Assembly: GCA_964392445.1 (NCBI GenBank)
Contig: CAYMPD010000019.1
Span: 1 to 22,149 of the forward strand
DNA: 22,149 nucleotides
Direction: 5' to 3'
Source: an uncultured archaeon
GTDB taxonomy: Archaea; Aenigmatarchaeota; Aenigmatarchaeia; CG10238-14
Both the position numbers and the translations under genes were made by a program. The notes beneath the pieces were generated by a model that was not told the origin of the DNA, ran no database searches, and saw nothing but the letters and a program-made list of their open reading frames with translations. Every line of letters begins with the position of its first letter. Position 1 is the stretch's first letter. Below, piece after piece: positions 1 to 21,962 of this stretch.

Positions 1-1447
1 TAGCCCCCCTCGCGGAACCCAAATTTGACATTCCCATTAAGAGAGCGCCTCATTTAGACTCCACTCGGATGGCTTGACGGGCGGTGTGTGCAAGGCACAG
101 GGACATATTCGACGAACGATAATGACGTTTGTCTACTAGAAATTCCAGCTTCGCGAGGTTGAGTTACAAACCTCGATCCGTACTTAGTATAAGTTTAAGA
201 GATTGGCTTCCCCTCTCGGGGTTGCAACTCATTGTCTCATACATTGTAGGCCGCGTGTAGCCGGGGAAATTCGGGCCATACTGACCTACCGTCGCCTCCA
301 CCTTCCTCTGGTTTATCACCAGCGGTCTCCTATGAGTGCACTCTTGCGAGTTAGCAACATAGGATGGAGATCTCGCTCGTTAACGGACTTAACCGCACGC
401 TTCACAGTACGAGCTGACGATGGCCATGCAACTCCTCTCAGCTTGTCTGGTAAACCCTTCAGATTGACCTTCATCCTGCTGTCGATCCCCGTGAGATTTC
501 CGGCGTTGGATCCAATTGAACCGCAGCCTCCACTTCTTGTGTGTGCCCCCGCCAATTCCCTTAAGTTTCAACCTTGCGGTCGTAATTCCCAGGTGGCCCA
601 CTTAACACCTACGCTCCGGCACAACAAACCCTCGTAAGGTTTGTAGCACCAAGTGGGCATCGTTTACGCCTAGGACTAACGGGGTATCTAATCCCGGTCG
701 CTACCCTAGGTTTCGTCCCTCACCGTCGAACCTGTTCTAGGTGGACGCCTTCGCCACTGGTGGTCCCACTGGGATTATAGGATTTTACCCCTCCCCCAGC
801 AGTACCTCTACCCTCTCCCAGTCCCAAGTCTAGCAGTATCCCCAGCAAGCCTACTAGTTTTCCAGTAGATTTCACTAGGGACTTACAAGACCGGCTACGG
901 ACGCTTTAGACCAACTAATACCGGATACCACTTGAGGCGCAGGTATTACCGCTTACCGTTCTAAGAGTTATTAAACTCCCTAGAATGGCGGCTGGCACCT
1001 GTCTTACCCACCTCTTATTCTCCGAGCGATTTTGACTCGGTAAAAGCTTATGCAAAGCATAAGCACTCCAGATCCCCCCATCGTGCGTTAACACAGTGTG
1101 AAGGTTCCGCGCCTGCTGCGTCCCGTAGGACCTGGATTCATGTCTCAGAATCCATCTCTGGGCTTCCACTCTCATGGCCCATACCCGTTATAGCTTTGGG
1201 GGTACATTACGCCCCCAACAGGCTGATAAGGTGTAGTCCCATCCTAAAGCAACGGATTTTTCGGACGTTTTATCATTCCAGACCAAAACGTCTATCAGGT
1301 ATTAGCCTCAATTTCTCGAGATTATCCCTGACTTTAGGGTAGGTTAACTACATATTACTGAGCAGTACGTCGAGTCCCGAAGACTCTCAACTTGCATGGC
1401 TTAGTCGGATCCGGATAGCGGTATCCTCCGGCAGGATCAACCGGAAT
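1..1447 (-). rRNA. rrs: 16S rRNA, archaeal (3' end, roughly 50 nt including the anti-SD, lies outside the window)
   Basis: Minus strand begins ATTCCGGTTGATCCTGCCGGA at 1447. Conserved blocks: CCTACGGGACGCAGCAGGCGCG, GTGCCAGCCGCC/GCGGTAATAC, ATTAGATACCCCGTTAGTCC, AAACTTAAGGGAATTGGCGG, GCACACACCGCCCGTC. The window starts just inside the 1492R site. Confidence 0.99.
953..986 (-). other. 34-nt hairpin-type archaeal BHB intron in the 16S rRNA 530 loop (between E. coli-equivalent C526 and G527)
   Basis: Sense RNA reads GUGCCAGCCGCC[AUUCUAGGGAGUUUAAUAACUCUUAGAACGGUAA]GCGGUAAUAC. The intron folds into an 11-bp stem with one bulged G and a UAAU loop. Exon GCCG pairs with intron CGGU as the 4-bp central helix, flanked by 3-nt bulges CC|A and AA|G. 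Confidence 0.92.
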
Positions 1448-14055: not shown

Positions 14056-14628
14056 TCACTTCTTAGATTTTTTTGCCTTCTTCTTGGCTTTTTCCTTCTC
14101 TTGTTCTATCCAGTGAAAAGCTCCCAAGTGGGGTTGTCGCATAGTTAAACCAATTTTATTCTCCTTACTGGGTAGCATAGAGACTGAAATAATTCTCGCA
14201 CGTACAGGATCTCCTTCCTTCAGAGTCTTCTTACTCTCTTTACCAAGGAAAATCGAATTCTTCTCATCAAAACTAACATAATCATCCATTAATTGGGACA
14301 CGTGAACCAAACCATCAACCGGCCCAAACCTTATAAAAGCTCCAAATTCAGTGTTATCAATCACGTCTCCAATAACAACTTCATGTGTTTCTGGTTTAAA
14401 AGTAAGTAGTTCAAAAGTCACGGGATAATGAATAGTTGGGTCTTCAGGGAGTATCTTACCTTCCCCTATTTCCTTGATTTTAGTCACAACCAACCCTTTT
14501 CCAAATCTTCTATCCAATTTCTCTTCGTATTTATCAGCTATACTTTCCTTTACAGATTTTTTCAATCCCATACCAAACTTATTTGGGGGAACTTTGATTA
14601 TTGTTTTAATTGCTACTAATCTATACAT
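14056..14628 (-). CDS. rpo7: RNA polymerase subunit Rpo7 (RpoE')
   Basis: IKVPPNKFG, FGAFIRFGPVDGLVHVSQLMDD (S1 domain) and KIGLTMRQPHLG. Confidence 0.97.
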   Translation of the reverse strand: MYRLVAIKTIIKVPPNKFGMGLKKSVKESIADKYEEKLDRRFGKGLVVTKIKEIGEGKILPEDPTIHYPVTFELLTFKPETHEVVIGDVIDNTEFGAFIRFGPVDGLVHVSQLMDDYVSFDEKNSIFLGKESKKTLKEGDPVRARIISVSMLPSKENKIGLTMRQPHLGAFHWIEQEKEKAKKKAKKSKK

Positions 14629-15165
14629 CTATTCACCAAATTTTTCGTTATACATTTTCATGGATTTTTCAATTGTTTTTTTAGCTTCTTCAGCGTTTTC
14701 CCATGATTTTACTTTAACCCATTTACCCGGTTCCAAATTCTTCATAGTTTCAAAAAAGTCTGAAATTTCCTTTCTAACGTGTCCTGGTATATCTCCAATA
14801 TTCTTAATTTCACTGAATCTGGGGTCTTCGGTAGGTATTACAACTAACTTGTCATCTTTTCCCTTCTCATCCTTCATCATCATCAACGCAACCGGCCTCG
14901 CTTTTAATACACACCCAGGGAAAGTAGGATAATTGGTCAAAACTAAAACGTCAATTGGATCTCCATCATCATACCAAGTTTGTGGAAGAAAACCATAATC
15001 TCCCGGATAAAAAACAGCTGAATGTAAAACTCTGTCTAATTTAAATATTCCCTTTTCGTTATCATATTCGTACTTATTACAAGAACCTTTCGGTATCTCG
15101 ATTACAACATTAATTTCATCAGGTGCCTTTTTTCCAATTGGTACATCGTGAAGTAAATTCATCAT
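14629..15165 (-). CDS. ppa: Family I inorganic pyrophosphatase
   Basis: EIPKGSCNKYE, LDRVL, YPGDYGFLPQT, DGDPIDVLV and DDKL. Confidence 0.98.
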   Translation of the reverse strand: MMNLLHDVPIGKKAPDEINVVIEIPKGSCNKYEYDNEKGIFKLDRVLHSAVFYPGDYGFLPQTWYDDGDPIDVLVLTNYPTFPGCVLKARPVALMMMKDEKGKDDKLVVIPTEDPRFSEIKNIGDIPGHVRKEISDFFETMKNLEPGKWVKVKSWENAEEAKKTIEKSMKMYNEKFGE

Positions 15166-15542
15166 CTCATCTCCAAACGTTTTTCCGCTCTTAAATAAAT
15201 TACTTGTATACTTTTATTTTTTAACCTTTTAATTAGTTCTCTATCATTGGTTGCCACTAAAGTATTTTTCTGGTCAGCTAAGTCTACTATTGAGTCGTCT
15301 ACGTTGTTTTTTAGGTCTTTTATTACTTTGATATCATGTTTTTCTATCATTTCTAAACCTATTTTAGCGGCTATAGAGTGCTTTCCTTCCTTATTAGTAA
15401 GTTTCTCTAGTTCTCTACTGACTCCTTCGAGTACGATATATTCCTTCTCTCCCGGTACTAAGTGATCAATTTGGTCAAAAATATCCACTCCAAACTGATA
15501 AGGTATTGTTAAAAAATTAGTGTCTAGTACGATTTTTTTCAT
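15162..15542 (-). CDS. PIN-domain nuclease (Fcf1/Utp24-like)
   Basis: IVLDTNFL, VDDSIV and VATNDRELIKRLK acidic PIN motifs, in the conserved position downstream of aIF2-gamma. Confidence 0.92.
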   Translation of the reverse strand: MKKIVLDTNFLTIPYQFGVDIFDQIDHLVPGEKEYIVLEGVSRELEKLTNKEGKHSIAAKIGLEMIEKHDIKVIKDLKNNVDDSIVDLADQKNTLVATNDRELIKRLKNKSIQVIYLRAEKRLEMR

Positions 15543-16818: not shown

Positions 16819-17535
16819 TTATTCTGTTTTATCTTTAAGATATTCTTTCATACCTTTTCTGTCCTTATTCTTCTTTTCCACTTCTAGAATTTTCTTGTAA
16901 TTGGGATCATCCATTTTTTCTATCTTTTTCTTTGCGTCTGGAATGCTGTTATTGGAGAGGATTTTTTTGTAATTGGGTCCTTCTTTTTTTTCTTCCTTTT
17001 CCTCTTCCTTCTTTTCCTCTTTAGGTTCTTCCTTCTTTGGTTTTTCCTCGGGTTTCTTTTCTTTTTCCTTTACTTCTTCTTTTTTCTTCTCTGGTTTTCT
17101 CTCTTCTTCTTTTGACTTATCTTTTTTTTCTTCCTTAGGAGCTTCTTTAGGTTCTTCCTTTCCCATTAATGCCGGCAAACTTTTAGAGCCCTCTTTAATA
17201 ACCTTACAATTAACCTGAACAATGTTCTTACTTATAGTATTCCCAGCAACCATCTTTCTTTTTCTCATACCTGCTCTCTTTGGATGAAATCCGGGTGGGT
17301 GTGAAAGCACTATTTTCTTCCTACCCATTCCATGAAGTTGCGGGTGCATTGGGAATCCATCTTTATCTGTTCCACCAGTTATTTTGATCTCATAACCAGG
17401 TAAACCTATCAAATCACCATTAAATTTATCTCCAATCTTTTTACCAACTAATCCTGCAGCCTTGCTTTGATCCACTTCTAGGTTATAACTCTTCCTAGTT
17501 TTTGGATTTGCAATCACAAATTTAAACGAAGCCAT
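16819..17535 (-). CDS. rps6e: 30S ribosomal protein S6e with a long K/E-rich linker and an extra C-terminal helical domain
   Basis: S6e core LVGKKIGD, KITGGTDKDGFPMHP, RKRKMVAGN and VQVNCKV (aa 1-120), then about 115 extra residues. Confidence 0.95.
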   Translation of the reverse strand: MASFKFVIANPKTRKSYNLEVDQSKAAGLVGKKIGDKFNGDLIGLPGYEIKITGGTDKDGFPMHPQLHGMGRKKIVLSHPPGFHPKRAGMRKRKMVAGNTISKNIVQVNCKVIKEGSKSLPALMGKEEPKEAPKEEKKDKSKEEERKPEKKKEEVKEKEKKPEEKPKKEEPKEEKKEEEKEEKKEGPNYKKILSNNSIPDAKKKIEKMDDPNYKKILEVEKKNKDRKGMKEYLKDKTE

Positions 17536-18599: not shown

Positions 18600-18630
18600 C
18601 CTGCGGACTATAGAATAGAGTGTGAGGAAA

Positions 18631-18865
18631 ATGACTGGTGAATTAGTTTGGTTTACCAAATTCAGCTCAAAAAGTGTTTAGAGTTTTATCTAGATCACCC
18701 TCGCTTTCTCAAAAAGAAATTAAAAATAAGACTGGGTTATCTATTCGTTCTGTGAAGGGTTCTTTGAAACTGCTTAGAGAAGAGGATATTGTTGAGGAAA
18801 TGCCTGTTTTTGAGGATATGAGAAGGAAGAAGTATGTTTTAAGAGGTGGAGGGAATGAAAGGTGA
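18631..18865 (+). CDS. Small wHTH regulator, 77 aa when assembled through a +1 frameshift at GTT-TGG (18646-18651)
   Basis: Frame 0 gives MTGELVWFTKFSSKSV* (stop 18679-18681). A +1 shift gives MTGELV-GLPNSAQKVFRVLSRSPSLSQKEIKNKTGLSIRSVKGSLKLL..., restoring an LPxSAxxV first helix typical of small archaeal wHTH proteins. The ORF track calls only 18674-18865. Confidence 0.75.
18637..18651 (+). promoter_or_regulatory. Recoding motif copy 1: GGTGAA-TTAG-TTTGG
   Basis: In-frame GGT GAA TTA GTT TGG after ATG 18631. The long ORF is in the +1 frame. Confidence 0.8.
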
Positions 18866-19548
18866 ATGTGTTTGGCGTTATAGGAGGATTGGGACCAGAA
18901 GCTACATCCAAATTTTACTTAGATGTTATTAGAAGATTTATTGAAAAATATGAATATTACCCACAAATGTTGATAGATAACGTATCTTTTCCCCAAAGAT
19001 TGGAACAAGAAATAATTCGAGACTGTAGGAATGAAAATGAAATATTGCCTTTTCTAATAAAAAGCGTAAAGAAATTAAACAAAAGTGGGGTCGATTTTCT
19101 AGTTATACCCTGTAATACTTTGCATATTTTTATTGAAGAATTAAGAAGAAAATCAGAAGTTCCTATACTAAGTATTGTTGACGAGACTACAAAAAAAATA
19201 AAACAAAAAGGATACGAAAGAATAGGTCTATTAGCAACTTCTAAGACTGTAAAATCAGAATTATTTGAAAATAGCTTTGAAATGATTCTCCCAGAGGATG
19301 AAGAACAGGATGAAATCTCTAGAATAGAACTTCGAATACTAAGGAATCAGGCTGCCCAGGAAGATAAAATTTTTATGGAGAATATCATTAAAAAGTTGAA
19401 AAATCAAGGTTCTGATGCTATAGTAGTTGGTTGTACCAATCTGCATCAGGTAATAGATACCAATGAGAATAAAATCGATATAATTGATACTTTGGAAGTT
19501 TTGATTGATTCTAGCTTTAAAAGAATGATAAGAGGTGAGTCGAAATGA
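18855..19548 (+). CDS. Aspartate/glutamate racemase family protein, 230 aa when assembled through a +1 frameshift at GTT-TGG (18870-18875)
   Basis: GVIGGLGPEAT, catalytic cysteine pair IPCNTLH and VGCTNL, and IGLLAT. SD GAGGTGG (18843-18849) precedes ATG 18855. Frame 0 stops at 18930-18932. The track uses GTG 18862. Confidence 0.85.
18861..18875 (+). promoter_or_regulatory. Recoding motif copy 2: GGTGAA-TGTG-TTTGG
   Basis: In-frame GGT GAA TGT GTT TGG after ATG 18855. Confidence 0.8.
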
Positions 19549-19899
19549 CTGGTGAAAGTTTTTGGGAGAGTTATAAGAACAAGAAGTGATCCAGCTCAAG
19601 GAGTTGCTAGAAGAAGAGCGCAGTATAGAGATGGACATGAACCTAGAATAACTAGAATTGATCCTTATGAAACCCTTAGTGAAAGAGAAAGAGAAATTTT
19701 AACACATATAGCTAGTGGTGGTTCTCATTATTTTGGAAATGTTACTCGTGCTCTCGGATTAGGTATAGGTTCTATAGATTCAGTTGGTCAAACGATGAGA
19801 TCAATGGTTTATAGACTTACTGGTGGAAAAAGACGGGGTGCCAGTACTGATAATCTTAGATATATTGCCAGAATGGCGAAATCAAAAGGTTTAATATAA
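19545..19899 (+). CDS. Hypothetical protein with a degenerate LuxR-like HTH, 117 aa when assembled through a +1 frameshift at TTT-TGG (19560-19565)
   Basis: ATG 19545 overlaps the racemase TGA (ATGA) and follows SD GAGGTGA (19532-19538). Frame 0 gives MTGESFWESYKNKK*. The +1 ORF contains LSEREREILTHIASG...ALGLG..SV...RL...ARMAKSKGLI. Confidence 0.65.
19551..19565 (+). promoter_or_regulatory. Recoding motif copy 3: GGTGAA-AGTT-TTTGG
   Basis: In-frame GGT GAA AGT TTT TGG after ATG 19545. Confidence 0.8.
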
Positions 19900-19912
19900 G
19901 AGGTGAAGAAAA

Positions 19913-20303
19913 ATGAGAAAAATAGGTGAATATATTTGGGGTTCTGGAAGATGGGATATTAGGACCGGAAAGAATCTTTGTCGTCAGAGGGGTTGAAGAG
20001 CCAGACTATTCCGATTATTCTTTCGGTAAAGTAAGGGGAAGTATAGGTGCTGGTTTAAGTGGTACCTTGTATTCTCGTGAAATACCAATAAGAAGATTTA
20101 TTATCGAATTGGGAATAGATGGGGAAGATTATCGAATTGGTACTAGAGTTCCTCTTGAATCCATAGACACAAGAGAATCATTTGATGGTATTCTACCAAG
20201 AGATTTAGATAAGATTAGAAAGTTAGTGGGTAAAAAAATCGTTATGAGATCGATAAAACCCTATAATTCACGGACTATAAGAAAATTAGCAAGGAAAAGA
20301 TAA
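19913..20303 (+). CDS. Hypothetical protein, 129 aa when assembled through a +1 frameshift at ATT-TGG (19934-19939)
   Basis: SD GAGGTGA (19900-19906) lies 6 nt before ATG 19913. Frame 0 gives MRKIGEYIWGSGRWDIRTGKNLCRQRG*. A +1 shift gives MRKIGEYI-GVLEDGILGPERIF... Confidence 0.6.
19925..19939 (+). promoter_or_regulatory. Recoding motif copy 4: GGTGAA-TATA-TTTGG
   Basis: In-frame GGT GAA TAT ATT TGG after ATG 19913. Confidence 0.8.
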
Positions 20304-20327
20304 TTTTACCTTTTCTTTTTTATTTTT
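20304..20327 (+). terminator. Oligo-T tract, candidate archaeal intrinsic terminator between the operon and ybaK-trpS
   Basis: TTTTACCTTTTCTTTTTTATTTTT directly follows the TAA at 20301-20303. Confidence 0.5.
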
Positions 20328-20347
20328 CAAAAATCTAAGTGATAAAC

Positions 20348-20836
20348 ATGTCATTCGTCGAGAAAAAAATCAAAAAACTATTGGAAGAGAAAGGGATAGA
20401 ATACAAGGAATACGAACACGAACCAGTTTACACCTGCGAAGTAGCTGATAAAGTAAGAAAAGGGATAAAAAGTGAAGACAAAGATGACTTCAAAAAAGGA
20501 GGAATAAAAAATCTACTTTTCCAAAAAAGAGGTGGAGAATTCATCATGGTCCTAGGTCCAGGAGATCAGAAAATAGATGAGGATAAGATAAAAGAACTGG
20601 AAGGGACTAAATTTATGAAGCTAGCAAAACCAAAAAGCGTGCAAAGGATAGTAGGTTGTAAAATAGGATGTGTTCCTCCATTCGGCCATAAGAGAAAAAT
20701 AAAAACTTACCTTAACAAAGAATTACTAGAATACGATTATCTGTACTTCAACCCAGGAAATCATTCCAAGACAATCAAAATTAAAGCTAAGGATTTACTT
20801 AAGTTAATTGAAAATCCAATAATATATGAGGGATAA
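20348..20836 (+). CDS. YbaK/ProX (INS superfamily) aminoacyl-tRNA deacylase
   Basis: YEHEPVYTCE, IKNLLF (conserved Lys) and GCKIGCVPPFG (GxxxP loop). The ATG at 20348 is preferred over GTG 20339. Confidence 0.9.
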   Translation: MSFVEKKIKKLLEEKGIEYKEYEHEPVYTCEVADKVRKGIKSEDKDDFKKGGIKNLLFQKRGGEFIMVLGPGDQKIDEDKIKELEGTKFMKLAKPKSVQRIVGCKIGCVPPFGHKRKIKTYLNKELLEYDYLYFNPGNHSKTIKIKAKDLLKLIENPIIYEG

Positions 20837-20837
20837 T

Positions 20838-21962
20838 ATGCCTGAATATCTAGTTACACCATGGGAAGTTAAAGGAAATGTAGATTATGATAAGCTAATT
20901 AAAGAATTTGGGACAGAAAAGATAGATAAAAAACTCTTGAAAAGGATAAAAAAACAGACAGAAAAATTGCATCACTTCCTAAGGAGAGGTATATTTTTCT
21001 CGCATAGAGACATGAATTGGGTTCTAGATGAATACGAAAAAGGAAATAAATTCTACTTATACACAGGCCGAGCACCATCAGGTCCAGTTCATCTAGGACA
21101 TTTGATACCATGGATTTTCACAAAGTGGTTGCAAGACAAGTTCGATGTTAAATTATTGTTCCAGATACCGGACGAGGAAAAGTACTTGTTCAAAGATAAG
21201 TTAACCCTAGAAGACACAAAAAAATGGGCCTATGAAAATATTCTTGACATAATTGCAGTGGGATTTGATCCTAAGAAAACAATGATATTTTTGGACACGG
21301 AATACGCTAAAACTATGTACAAACATGCTTGTAAAGTTGCAAAACACATAACCTTCTCAACTACTAAAGCAGTATTCGGACTAAAGAATTCAAATAATAT
21401 TGGAGAGATTTTTTACACAGCTATGCAATCAGTACCTGCATTTTTACCGAGTATAAGAGAAGGGAAAACAACTCCATGTCTAATACCCTATGCTATTGAT
21501 CAAGATCCACATTTCAGAATTACAAGAGATGTTGCTCCATTACTTGATTATCCAAAACCCGCGGCTTTGCATTGTAGATTCTTACCAGGTTTACAAGGGA
21601 TGTCCGAAGAAGGGAAGATGTCATCTTCTGTTGAATCAACCTGTATTTTTACGACTGATAAACCCAAAGAAGTCAAAGAAAAAATTATGAAGCACGCTTT
21701 TTCTGGGGGGAGAAGAAATGTTGAAGAGCATAGGAAATTGGGAGGGAATTCTGATGTGGATGTTTCTTATCAATGGTTAACATTCTTTGAAGAAGATGAT
21801 AAAAAACTGAAGAAAATATACGAAGATTACAAATCTGGCGACTTACTCACTGGGGAATTAAAACAAATTCTTGTGGATAAATTGAATGAATTTTTAAAAG
21901 AACATCAGAAAAGACGTGAGAAAGCTAAAGATAAATTGGAAGAGTTTATGTTGAGGGATTAG
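20838..21962 (+). CDS. trpS: Tryptophanyl-tRNA synthetase, archaeal/eukaryotic type
   Basis: VTPWEV, FLRRGIFFSHRD, YTGRAPSGPVHLGH (HIGH), IPYAIDQDPHFR, KMSSS (KMSKS), HAFSGG and LLTGELK. Start at ATG 20838 (SD GAGGGA) or 20826. Confidence 0.98.
   Translation: MPEYLVTPWEVKGNVDYDKLIKEFGTEKIDKKLLKRIKKQTEKLHHFLRRGIFFSHRDMNWVLDEYEKGNKFYLYTGRAPSGPVHLGHLIPWIFTKWLQDKFDVKLLFQIPDEEKYLFKDKLTLEDTKKWAYENILDIIAVGFDPKKTMIFLDTEYAKTMYKHACKVAKHITFSTTKAVFGLKNSNNIGEIFYTAMQSVPAFLPSIREGKTTPCLIPYAIDQDPHFRITRDVAPLLDYPKPAALHCRFLPGLQGMSEEGKMSSSVESTCIFTTDKPKEVKEKIMKHAFSGGRRNVEEHRKLGGNSDVDVSYQWLTFFEEDDKKLKKIYEDYKSGDLLTGELKQILVDKLNEFLKEHQKRREKAKDKLEEFMLRD

Follow-up and report, generated by a model that had tools for sequence, protein, structure and literature searches.

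Introduction

T-box riboswitches are structured RNAs that bind uncharged tRNA directly, and in leader-peptide attenuation of the trpL kind a tiny leader open reading frame (ORF) includes codons for the operon's amino acid, with the speed of the ribosome as the signal. In bacterial prfB, the functional ORF lies in the +1 frame behind a short zero frame, an element resembling a Shine-Dalgarno (SD) sequence lies a few nucleotides (nt) upstream, and a P-site NUU codon is followed by U (PMC5009743). Slippage at a P-site codon of the CUU type, occurring when the aminoacyl-tRNA for the A site is limiting, is the basis of hungry-codon shifting and of the Ty1 site CUU_AGG_C (PMC5009743). A review of recoding published in 2016 names prfB, antizyme and the ermC leader as cases of the sensor type, and regards the natural use of starvation-induced (hungry-codon) shifting as unclear (PMC5009743), while a review from 2021 reports one confirmed frameshift in cellular archaeal genes, a -1 case (PMC8211752). 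Here, a stretch of 22,149 nt from an uncultured archaeon of the Aenigmatarchaeota (contig CAYMPD010000019.1, hereafter "the window") was analyzed. Four consecutive genes of an operon that ends with tryptophan--tRNA ligase are each preceded by a short cassette, consisting of a leader ORF with an internal SD-like element, an NUU codon and a single tryptophan codon, and in each the main ORF lies in the +1 frame. Each cassette is probably a translational sensor of amino-acid shortage that acts through a programmed +1 ribosomal frameshift, a reading based on comparison of the sequences.

The cassettes share with prfB the short zero frame preceding a functional +1 ORF, the SD-like element a few nt upstream and a P-site NUU followed by U, with CUU as the commonest P-site codon among relatives. 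They differ in the A site, which in prfB holds UGA, read by the gene's own product RF2, and in the cassettes a sense codon (UGG, UGY or UAY) read by a tRNA; by Pfam and NCBIfam, the cassette products are not release factors. The spacer to GGUGA is 4 nt, the hosts are archaea, and the genes that would be regulated are regulators, enzymes, tRNAs and synthetase operons, with several cassettes in series per operon. Similar to trpL, a tiny leader ORF contains the codon of the operon's amino acid and ribosome speed would be the signal. However, only one sensing codon is present, its distance from the SD-like element is fixed, and the predicted readout is a change of frame. Furthermore, structural genes under attenuation have their own starts, whereas the cassette leader overlaps the main ORF, which in some cases has no canonical start at all. 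As with a T-box, synthetase and biosynthesis genes would be raised when the cognate tRNA is uncharged, with specificity arising from one codon-like triplet, but here the reader would be the ribosomal A site; an Rfam gathering scan of the window found just 16S rRNA, with no match to a T-box or any other family. In ketolide-induced frameshifting on the ermC leader, shifted ribosomes pass the leader stop and open the way to the downstream gene (PMC5009743), a likeness that applies to cassettes preceding tRNA-Cys/cysS and tyrS, although in ermC the trigger is an antibiotic, the shift is -1, and neither a cognate codon nor a trans-frame protein is involved. The proposed slip resembles that at hungry codons and in Ty1, but those cases are laboratory starvation errors or expression at a set ratio tied to a rare tRNA. 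Full-text searches on DPANN/Aenigmarchaeota frameshifting and on frameshift control of archaeal synthetases found no publication on such a cassette, consistent with the first-pass annotation of this DNA, which knew of no archaeal description.

Anatomy of the cassette

The 15-base pattern GGTGAANNNNTTTGG, that is GGTGAA-N4-TTTGG, occurs four times in the window, at 18637, 18861, 19551 and 19925 on the forward strand, compared with 0.02 matches expected from dinucleotide shuffles. The whole genome of 1,215,121 bases holds only these four copies, with 4 forward and 0 reverse matches. The ATG codons at 18631, 18855, 19545 and 19913, each with its own SD, share a frame with GGT GAA NNN NTT TGG. Frame 0 encodes a peptide of the form M..GE-x-[V/V/F/I]-W and reaches a stop after 16, 25, 14 and 27 codons in copies 1 to 4, respectively, in which the P-site codons are GTT, GTT, TTT and ATT, each then followed by T. 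The long ORFs of all four copies occupy the +1 frame and run from the TTT that overlaps NTT. The first-pass annotation had claimed an excess of the motif, an ATG in frame with it, closure of frame 0 at 14-27 codons and a real ORF in +1 from TTT, all of which agree with the present analysis. Its placing of an SD 5-6 nt before each ATG holds in general, at about 6 nt, but not for copy 1, in which GTGAGG ends 3 nt before the ATG.

As that annotation had supposed, the internal element can be matched to the anti-SD: GGTGA is perfectly complementary to the 16S 3' tail GGATCACCTCCT. The archaeal 16S rRNA gene of the window (1-1447, reverse strand) has its 3' end cut off by the contig start, and the missing tail was found at the end of contig 31. 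Among relatives, the dipeptide encoded by the element varies (GE, GD, GG, SD, SE, SG or CG), while the bases stay G-rich (GGTGA, GGGGA, AGTGA or GTGG). The element therefore changes as a peptide but not as a G-rich RNA, implying that it acts as RNA. Judging from this complementarity, the ribosome can pair with the element while NUU occupies the P site. Covariation of the anti-SD with the GGCGA variants of genus g9 was sought and not found, the 16S tail there being standard.

Conservation among relatives

A scan of related genomes, which the first-pass annotation had suggested, finds the cassette conserved. The pattern ATG-N3-GGTGAA-N4-TTTG gives 33 matches compared with 3 for reversed controls in 118 genomes of the order, and 57 compared with 7 in 371 genomes of the phylum. 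From relatives, a curated set of 70 distinct cassettes was assembled. In this set, the start codon lies 0, 3, 6 or 9 nt 5' of the element and is out of frame in none of the 70, frame 0 extends over 7-37 codons, and the +1 ORF begins at TTT. The P-site codon is CTT in 34, GTT in 26, TTT in 6 and ATT in 4 cassettes, the TTT that overlaps it being fixed by the pattern; only a three-T run (GTTTG or CTTTG) is present in 60 of the 70. Conserved protein sequence begins exactly at TTT, with FGLP[K/N]SA.K.. in the regulators and F[A/V]...L[I/V]GNTP in CysK. The base after the ATG (cassette position -13) is A in 53/70, giving ATGA; a +1-frame TGA is thereby present at the very start, and the ATGA often overlaps the preceding gene's stop.

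A prokaryote-wide scan, with one genome per species and a stricter pattern that included the upstream SD, yielded 27 matches. Eleven lie on contigs with archaeal labels (Ca. Aenigmatarchaeota or Aenigmarchaeota, Nanobdellati, Ca. Nanohaloarchaea, or unclassified) and one on a contig labelled Campylobacterales. The cassette logic is present in all 12, while the remaining 15 matches are scattered over bacteria and are without the frame logic. On this distribution, the host is assigned to DPANN archaea of the Aenigmatarchaeota type. The Campylobacterales-binned contig, which carries a 67-amino-acid regulator, is probably misbinned.

The sensing codon and its cognate operon

The codon in the A site follows the operon. 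TGG cassettes are located upstream of TrpRS in 15 of 17 genomes, and also before a TrpB-like enzyme (TrpB2) and an anthranilate synthase fragment (TrpE). Cys codons (TGT/TGC) are found upstream of CysRS on the same strand in all 16 genomes with enough sequence, where the cassettes directly precede CysK, small regulators, tRNA-Cys and other genes. Tyr codons (TAT/TAC) are found upstream of TyrRS in 4/4 genomes; one of these loci has prephenate dehydratase and dehydrogenase (TyrA) genes between, and two have an intron-containing tRNA-Tyr. The cognate genes were identified with Pfam and NCBIfam. In total, the match between codon and cognate synthetase comprises 35 loci in 23 genus-level lineages, and no cross-match between a sensing codon and a non-cognate synthetase was seen in the loci compared. 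The genus-level concordance is 23/23, with a rough P of 9e-11. The 70 cassettes use TGT 12 and TGC 16 times, and TAT 3 and TAC 2 times; since both synonymous codons are used for Cys and Tyr, it is the amino-acid meaning that is conserved rather than the bases. The genome of the window holds all three sets: besides the four Trp cassettes, two Cys cassettes (14398 and 15412) lie ahead of CysK and CysRS on contig 13, and on contig 4 a single Tyr cassette (38694) is followed by tRNA-Tyr, a paralogue of the racemase, a YbaK-like gene and TyrRS. The earlier suggestion that UGG is slow to decode in the A site is strengthened by this replacement of the codon by Cys or Tyr before the CysRS or TyrRS operons.

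Other sensing codons were also considered. For Phe, Leu or Ser, a base other than G after TTT gives 52 matches compared with 35 reversed controls (hand count), which is not clearly enriched, and the matches other than the Tyr cases represent noise within ORFs. For UGA in the A site, the TTTGA matches are without an upstream SD and without the context of an aminoacyl-tRNA synthetase. Separately, contig 26 of G011 (L117:131-706) contains two cassette-like leaders with Leu at the sensing position (TTG, and CTC after CTT), which precede a winged-helix gene beside genes of the S-adenosylmethionine cycle (AhcY, MTAP-like); LeuRS is not nearby.

Open +1 frames through tRNA genes

Where a tRNA gene follows a cassette, frame 0 stops before the tRNA and the +1 frame is open through the whole of it. 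This is the case in three lineages, namely G005/G014, G001/G004 and contig 4 of the window's own genome (tRNA-Tyr). The end of the +1 frame then coincides with the following start codon or lies beside it: in G005/G014 the frame stops 5 nt before cysS, and in G001/G004 the next cassette starts within about 30 nt of its end, as obtained by coordinate arithmetic. The null expectation for one open frame, taken from 46 predicted tRNAs of the window's genome, is 1.4% when 75 nt of upstream sequence are included and 14% when 15 nt are. The maintenance of an open +1 frame through tRNA genes indicates that ribosomes travel in this frame, and from the sequence they seem to do so even where no protein is needed.

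Two further regions containing cassettes should be described. On contig 13 of the window's genome, at about 14398-15412 (L091:2399-3413), a second Cys cassette ATGGCCGGGGAATTAGTTTGC opens a +1 ORF of 333 codons that contains two LAGLIDADG-like motifs and terminates, as ATGA, on the CysK cassette. Shortly before its end, this ORF contains a T-arm-like hairpin together with an acceptor-like 3' end. In two congeners, the same Cys cassette is followed by an ordinary tRNA-Cys, while in the contig 13 cluster neither ARAGORN nor Rfam found a tRNA-Cys; here the tRNA-Cys may be split by an endonuclease-bearing intron. On contig 4 of G147 (L167:1532-1960), and also in G148, the UGA that ends the first Tyr cassette's +1 frame overlaps an AUU in frame with an AbrB-like ORF, which has no canonical start, crosses a tRNA-Tyr with an intron and terminates immediately 5' of the ATG of a second Tyr cassette. 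This region could represent a chain of termination-reinitiation events.

Start codons and alternative explanations

The genes might start at the GTG inside GGTGAA, in which case the ATG frames would be overlapping upstream ORFs and no recoding would be required. The GTG is in frame with the main ORF in 52/70 cassettes, and MNVFGVIGG would be a plausible N-terminus for the racemase. However, the codon directly before TTT in the +1 frame, immediately after GTG-AAN, is a stop in 14/70 cassettes, compared with about 5/70 expected from base frequencies if the codon were unconstrained and 0 if it were codon 3 of a gene starting at GTG; stops are not avoided there. Copy 1 of the window reads GTG AAT TAG, a sequence shared with its orthologues in G001 and G004, and a stop occurs likewise in the racemase gene of G016, while the orthologues in G012 and G019 carry CTG and CAG instead of TAG. 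A sense reading of TAG was ruled out, since TAG terminates 187 of 949 long ORFs in the window's genome. In 18/70 cassettes, the +1 frame is devoid of ATG, GTG and TTG from the last stop up to TTT. With stops before TTT in some cassettes, canonical starts missing in some, and TAG terminating ordinarily, the GTG start is rejected, and in many copies it is impossible. Furthermore, the distance from the SD is 13-19 nt for the GTGs (13 and 19 nt in copies 3 and 4) but about 6 nt for the ATGs, and ATG 19545 forms an ATGA overlap with the upstream TGA. A GTG start also leaves the match of the frame-0 codon to the cognate synthetase unexplained, and a ribosome stalled on the upstream ORF would occlude the GTG, so that expression would fall in starvation, contrary to the expected direction. 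Initiation at GTG is consequently very unlikely, in agreement with the first-pass annotation, which had already judged it a poor explanation from copy 1, the ATGA overlap and the SD distances. The TTG inside TTTG was also tried as a start (SD plus 6 nt) and rejected, being out of frame with every main ORF. A read-through of copy 1 by means of a four-letter codon was rejected too, as it broke down at a second GTTT. The internal start chosen by gene callers differs in every orthologue. A further possibility is that the leaders sense solely through stalling, as in attenuation or ermC, and that the main ORFs are reached by another non-canonical initiation or by re-initiation. A short leader with a cognate codon is a hallmark of attenuation, and in some cassettes a tRNA gene comes next or the +1 frame is short, so that no trans-frame protein is needed. 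Nevertheless, stalling alone is unlikely, given the 18 main ORFs without a canonical start and the conserved protein that starts right at TTT. In addition, the main ORF is always in +1, beginning exactly at the slippery U, and the frame that stays open through tRNA genes implies ribosomes in it.

Transcriptional slippage or editing that removed one U of the TTT in the mRNA would yield the same protein product. Runs known to slip in transcription are far longer than three T, whereas 60 of the 70 cassettes have a run of just three, and the cognate codon and SD-like element would be left unexplained, which makes this explanation extremely improbable. To an operator for the co-encoded winged-helix regulators, a similarly slight probability is assigned. 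It is true that winged-helix genes are the commonest carriers and that the motif is repeated within operons, but a DNA operator does not account for a motif that is always in frame behind an SD and ATG, for a variable position that behaves as a codon (synonymous TGT/TGC and TAT/TAC), or for the strict strand polarity in the window's genome. Single-base frame breaks near gene starts are typical of assembly errors, so that assembly indels or pseudogenes had to be considered as well; the probability of artefact or decay is practically negligible, since dozens of metagenome-assembled genomes (MAGs) from many families, each assembled independently, show the same relationship between the frames, with sequence that varies around fixed positions and downstream ORFs that are intact and conserved.

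Several points weigh against a frameshift sensor. A GTG start is formally possible in those 52 cassettes, including window copies 2-4. The search patterns fixed TTT and a U-initial sensing codon, so the invariance of these positions is partly built in. The 4-nt spacing between GGTGA and the P-site codon falls within the genome's GGTGA-to-start range (4-7 nt); a prfB-like strain arising from short spacing was dropped for this reason. In G147 and G148, the +1 frame of the first Tyr cassette is just 7 codons long. In G248, TrpRS is absent within 7 kb of a Trp-type regulator cassette, and in six MAGs outside the phylum sample a Cys-type regulator stands beside pyrBI and not CysRS. Finally, programmed +1 frameshifting is undemonstrated for any cellular archaeal gene (PMC8211752). 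On balance, the recoding interpretation proposed in the first-pass annotation is supported by the comparative data. The six pyrBI MAGs (loci L066, L071, L079, L081, L085 and L087) came from the prokaryote-wide scan and carry the labels Nanohaloarchaea, Nanobdellati and Aenigmatarchaeota; in them, the 67-amino-acid Cys-cassette regulator lies between the aspartate carbamoyltransferase genes and an isopropylmalate/citramalate-synthase-like gene.

Proposed mechanism

The process may be divided into several steps. During the first step, the ribosome would start at the SD-served ATG and read 4-7 codons. During the second step, NUU (Val, Leu, Ile or Phe) would occupy the P site, the internal GGUGA(A) located 4 nt upstream would pair with the 16S 3' tail and probably stimulate the slip, and the A site would hold one codon of the operon's amino acid, UGG in the window. 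The third step would depend on charged tRNA. When charged tRNA-Trp is plentiful, UGG would be read and frame-0 termination would follow a few codons on, with no protein made. When it is scarce, the A site would stay empty, the peptidyl-tRNA would re-pair from NUU to UUU, and GGN would be read next. Subsequently, the slipped ribosome would continue in +1 through the regulator, the racemase and two further proteins, towards the ybaK-like gene and trpS. The trans-frame products would contain the predicted junction peptides MTGELVGLPNSAQK, GECVGVIGGLGPEATSK and IGEYIGVLEDGILGPER. Downstream cistrons may profit by direct synthesis of the regulator or enzyme, by coupling to the next start, or by relief of polarity. 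The direction of control, with more product in starvation, is sensible.

Organization of the tryptophan operon

In cassette 1, the SD-like GTGAGG (18622-18627, forward strand, as are all features of this operon) serves ATG 18631. The leader at 18631-18681 (MTGELVW..., 16 codons and then TAG) includes the core at 18637-18651, with the SD-like GGTGAA identified as a complement of the 16S tail, 4 nt, the P-site GTT at 18646-18648 and the sensing TGG at 18649-18651. The +1 ORF at 18647-18865 encodes a small winged-helix regulator (Pfam HTH_24). It is closed upstream by the TAG at 18644-18646, its first canonical start is GTG 18674, and gene callers disagree on its start; the predicted trans-frame product has 77 amino acids. 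The stop of this gene, TGA at 18863-18865, falls inside the core of cassette 2 (18861-18875; GGTGAA, GTT 18870-18872, TGG 18873-18875), of which the leader spans 18855-18932 (MKGECVW..., 25 codons) behind the SD GAGGTGGAGGG at 18843-18853. The corresponding +1 ORF, 18871-19548, encodes an amino-acid racemase of the Asp/Glu racemase family (Pfam PF01177, 9.7e-34; NCBIfam TIGR00035).

Cassette 3 has its SD, GAGGTGA, at 19532-19538, its leader at 19545-19589 (MTGESFW..., 14 codons) and its core at 19551-19565 (GGTGAA, TTT 19560-19562, TGG 19563-19565), and the +1 ORF at 19561-19899 encodes a protein of 112 amino acids with HTH-like (helix-turn-helix) leads only. In cassette 4, the same SD sequence is located at 19900-19906, the leader at 19913-19996 (MRKIGEYIW..., 27 codons) and the core at 19925-19939 (GGTGAA, ATT 19934-19936, TGG 19937-19939). 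The 122-amino-acid protein of its +1 ORF (19935-20303) has blastp matches in G001 and G004, two congeners that keep it at the same operon position. Neither Pfam nor NCBIfam assigns a family to the proteins of ORFs 3 and 4, for which there are weak leads only. A YbaK-like aminoacyl-tRNA editing-domain protein with an ordinary start follows (20348-20836; Pfam PF04073, 1.5e-25), and the same-strand cluster is closed by tryptophan--tRNA ligase (20826-21962; NCBIfam NF008927, 530 bits compared with a cut-off of 478), the cognate of the four UGG sensing codons. Outside the operon, a ribosomal protein S6e-like ORF with a long Lys/Glu-rich C-terminal extension is located at 16819-17535 on the reverse strand.

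The Trp operon (window 18631-21962) and the Tyr operon (contig 4, 38366-42070) are paralogous in layout, with a small HTH gene, an amino-acid racemase, a YbaK-like editing domain and a synthetase common to both, and the racemase is linked to TrpRS in many relatives too. This layout hints at a module for salvage or editing of D/L-aromatic amino acids.

Conclusions

Gene callers truncate or mis-start all cassette genes, so the cassette is of direct relevance to annotation, and compact amino-acid-responsive switches for synthetic biology are suggested. The cassette would be the first natural regulated frameshift that reads the supply of charged tRNA, previously encountered as a laboratory error only. 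To our knowledge, it is poorly understood how archaea tune their synthetase genes and genes of amino-acid salvage to the supply of amino acids; the cassette offers a simple answer, with a built-in rule of specificity. It is likely that hungry-codon +1 frameshifting constitutes a general, evolved amino-acid sensor of archaea, a counterpart of T-boxes and attenuators that would control synthetase, salvage-enzyme, regulator and tRNA genes, with translation passing straight through tRNAs to the next cistron and the swap of a single codon setting the specificity.

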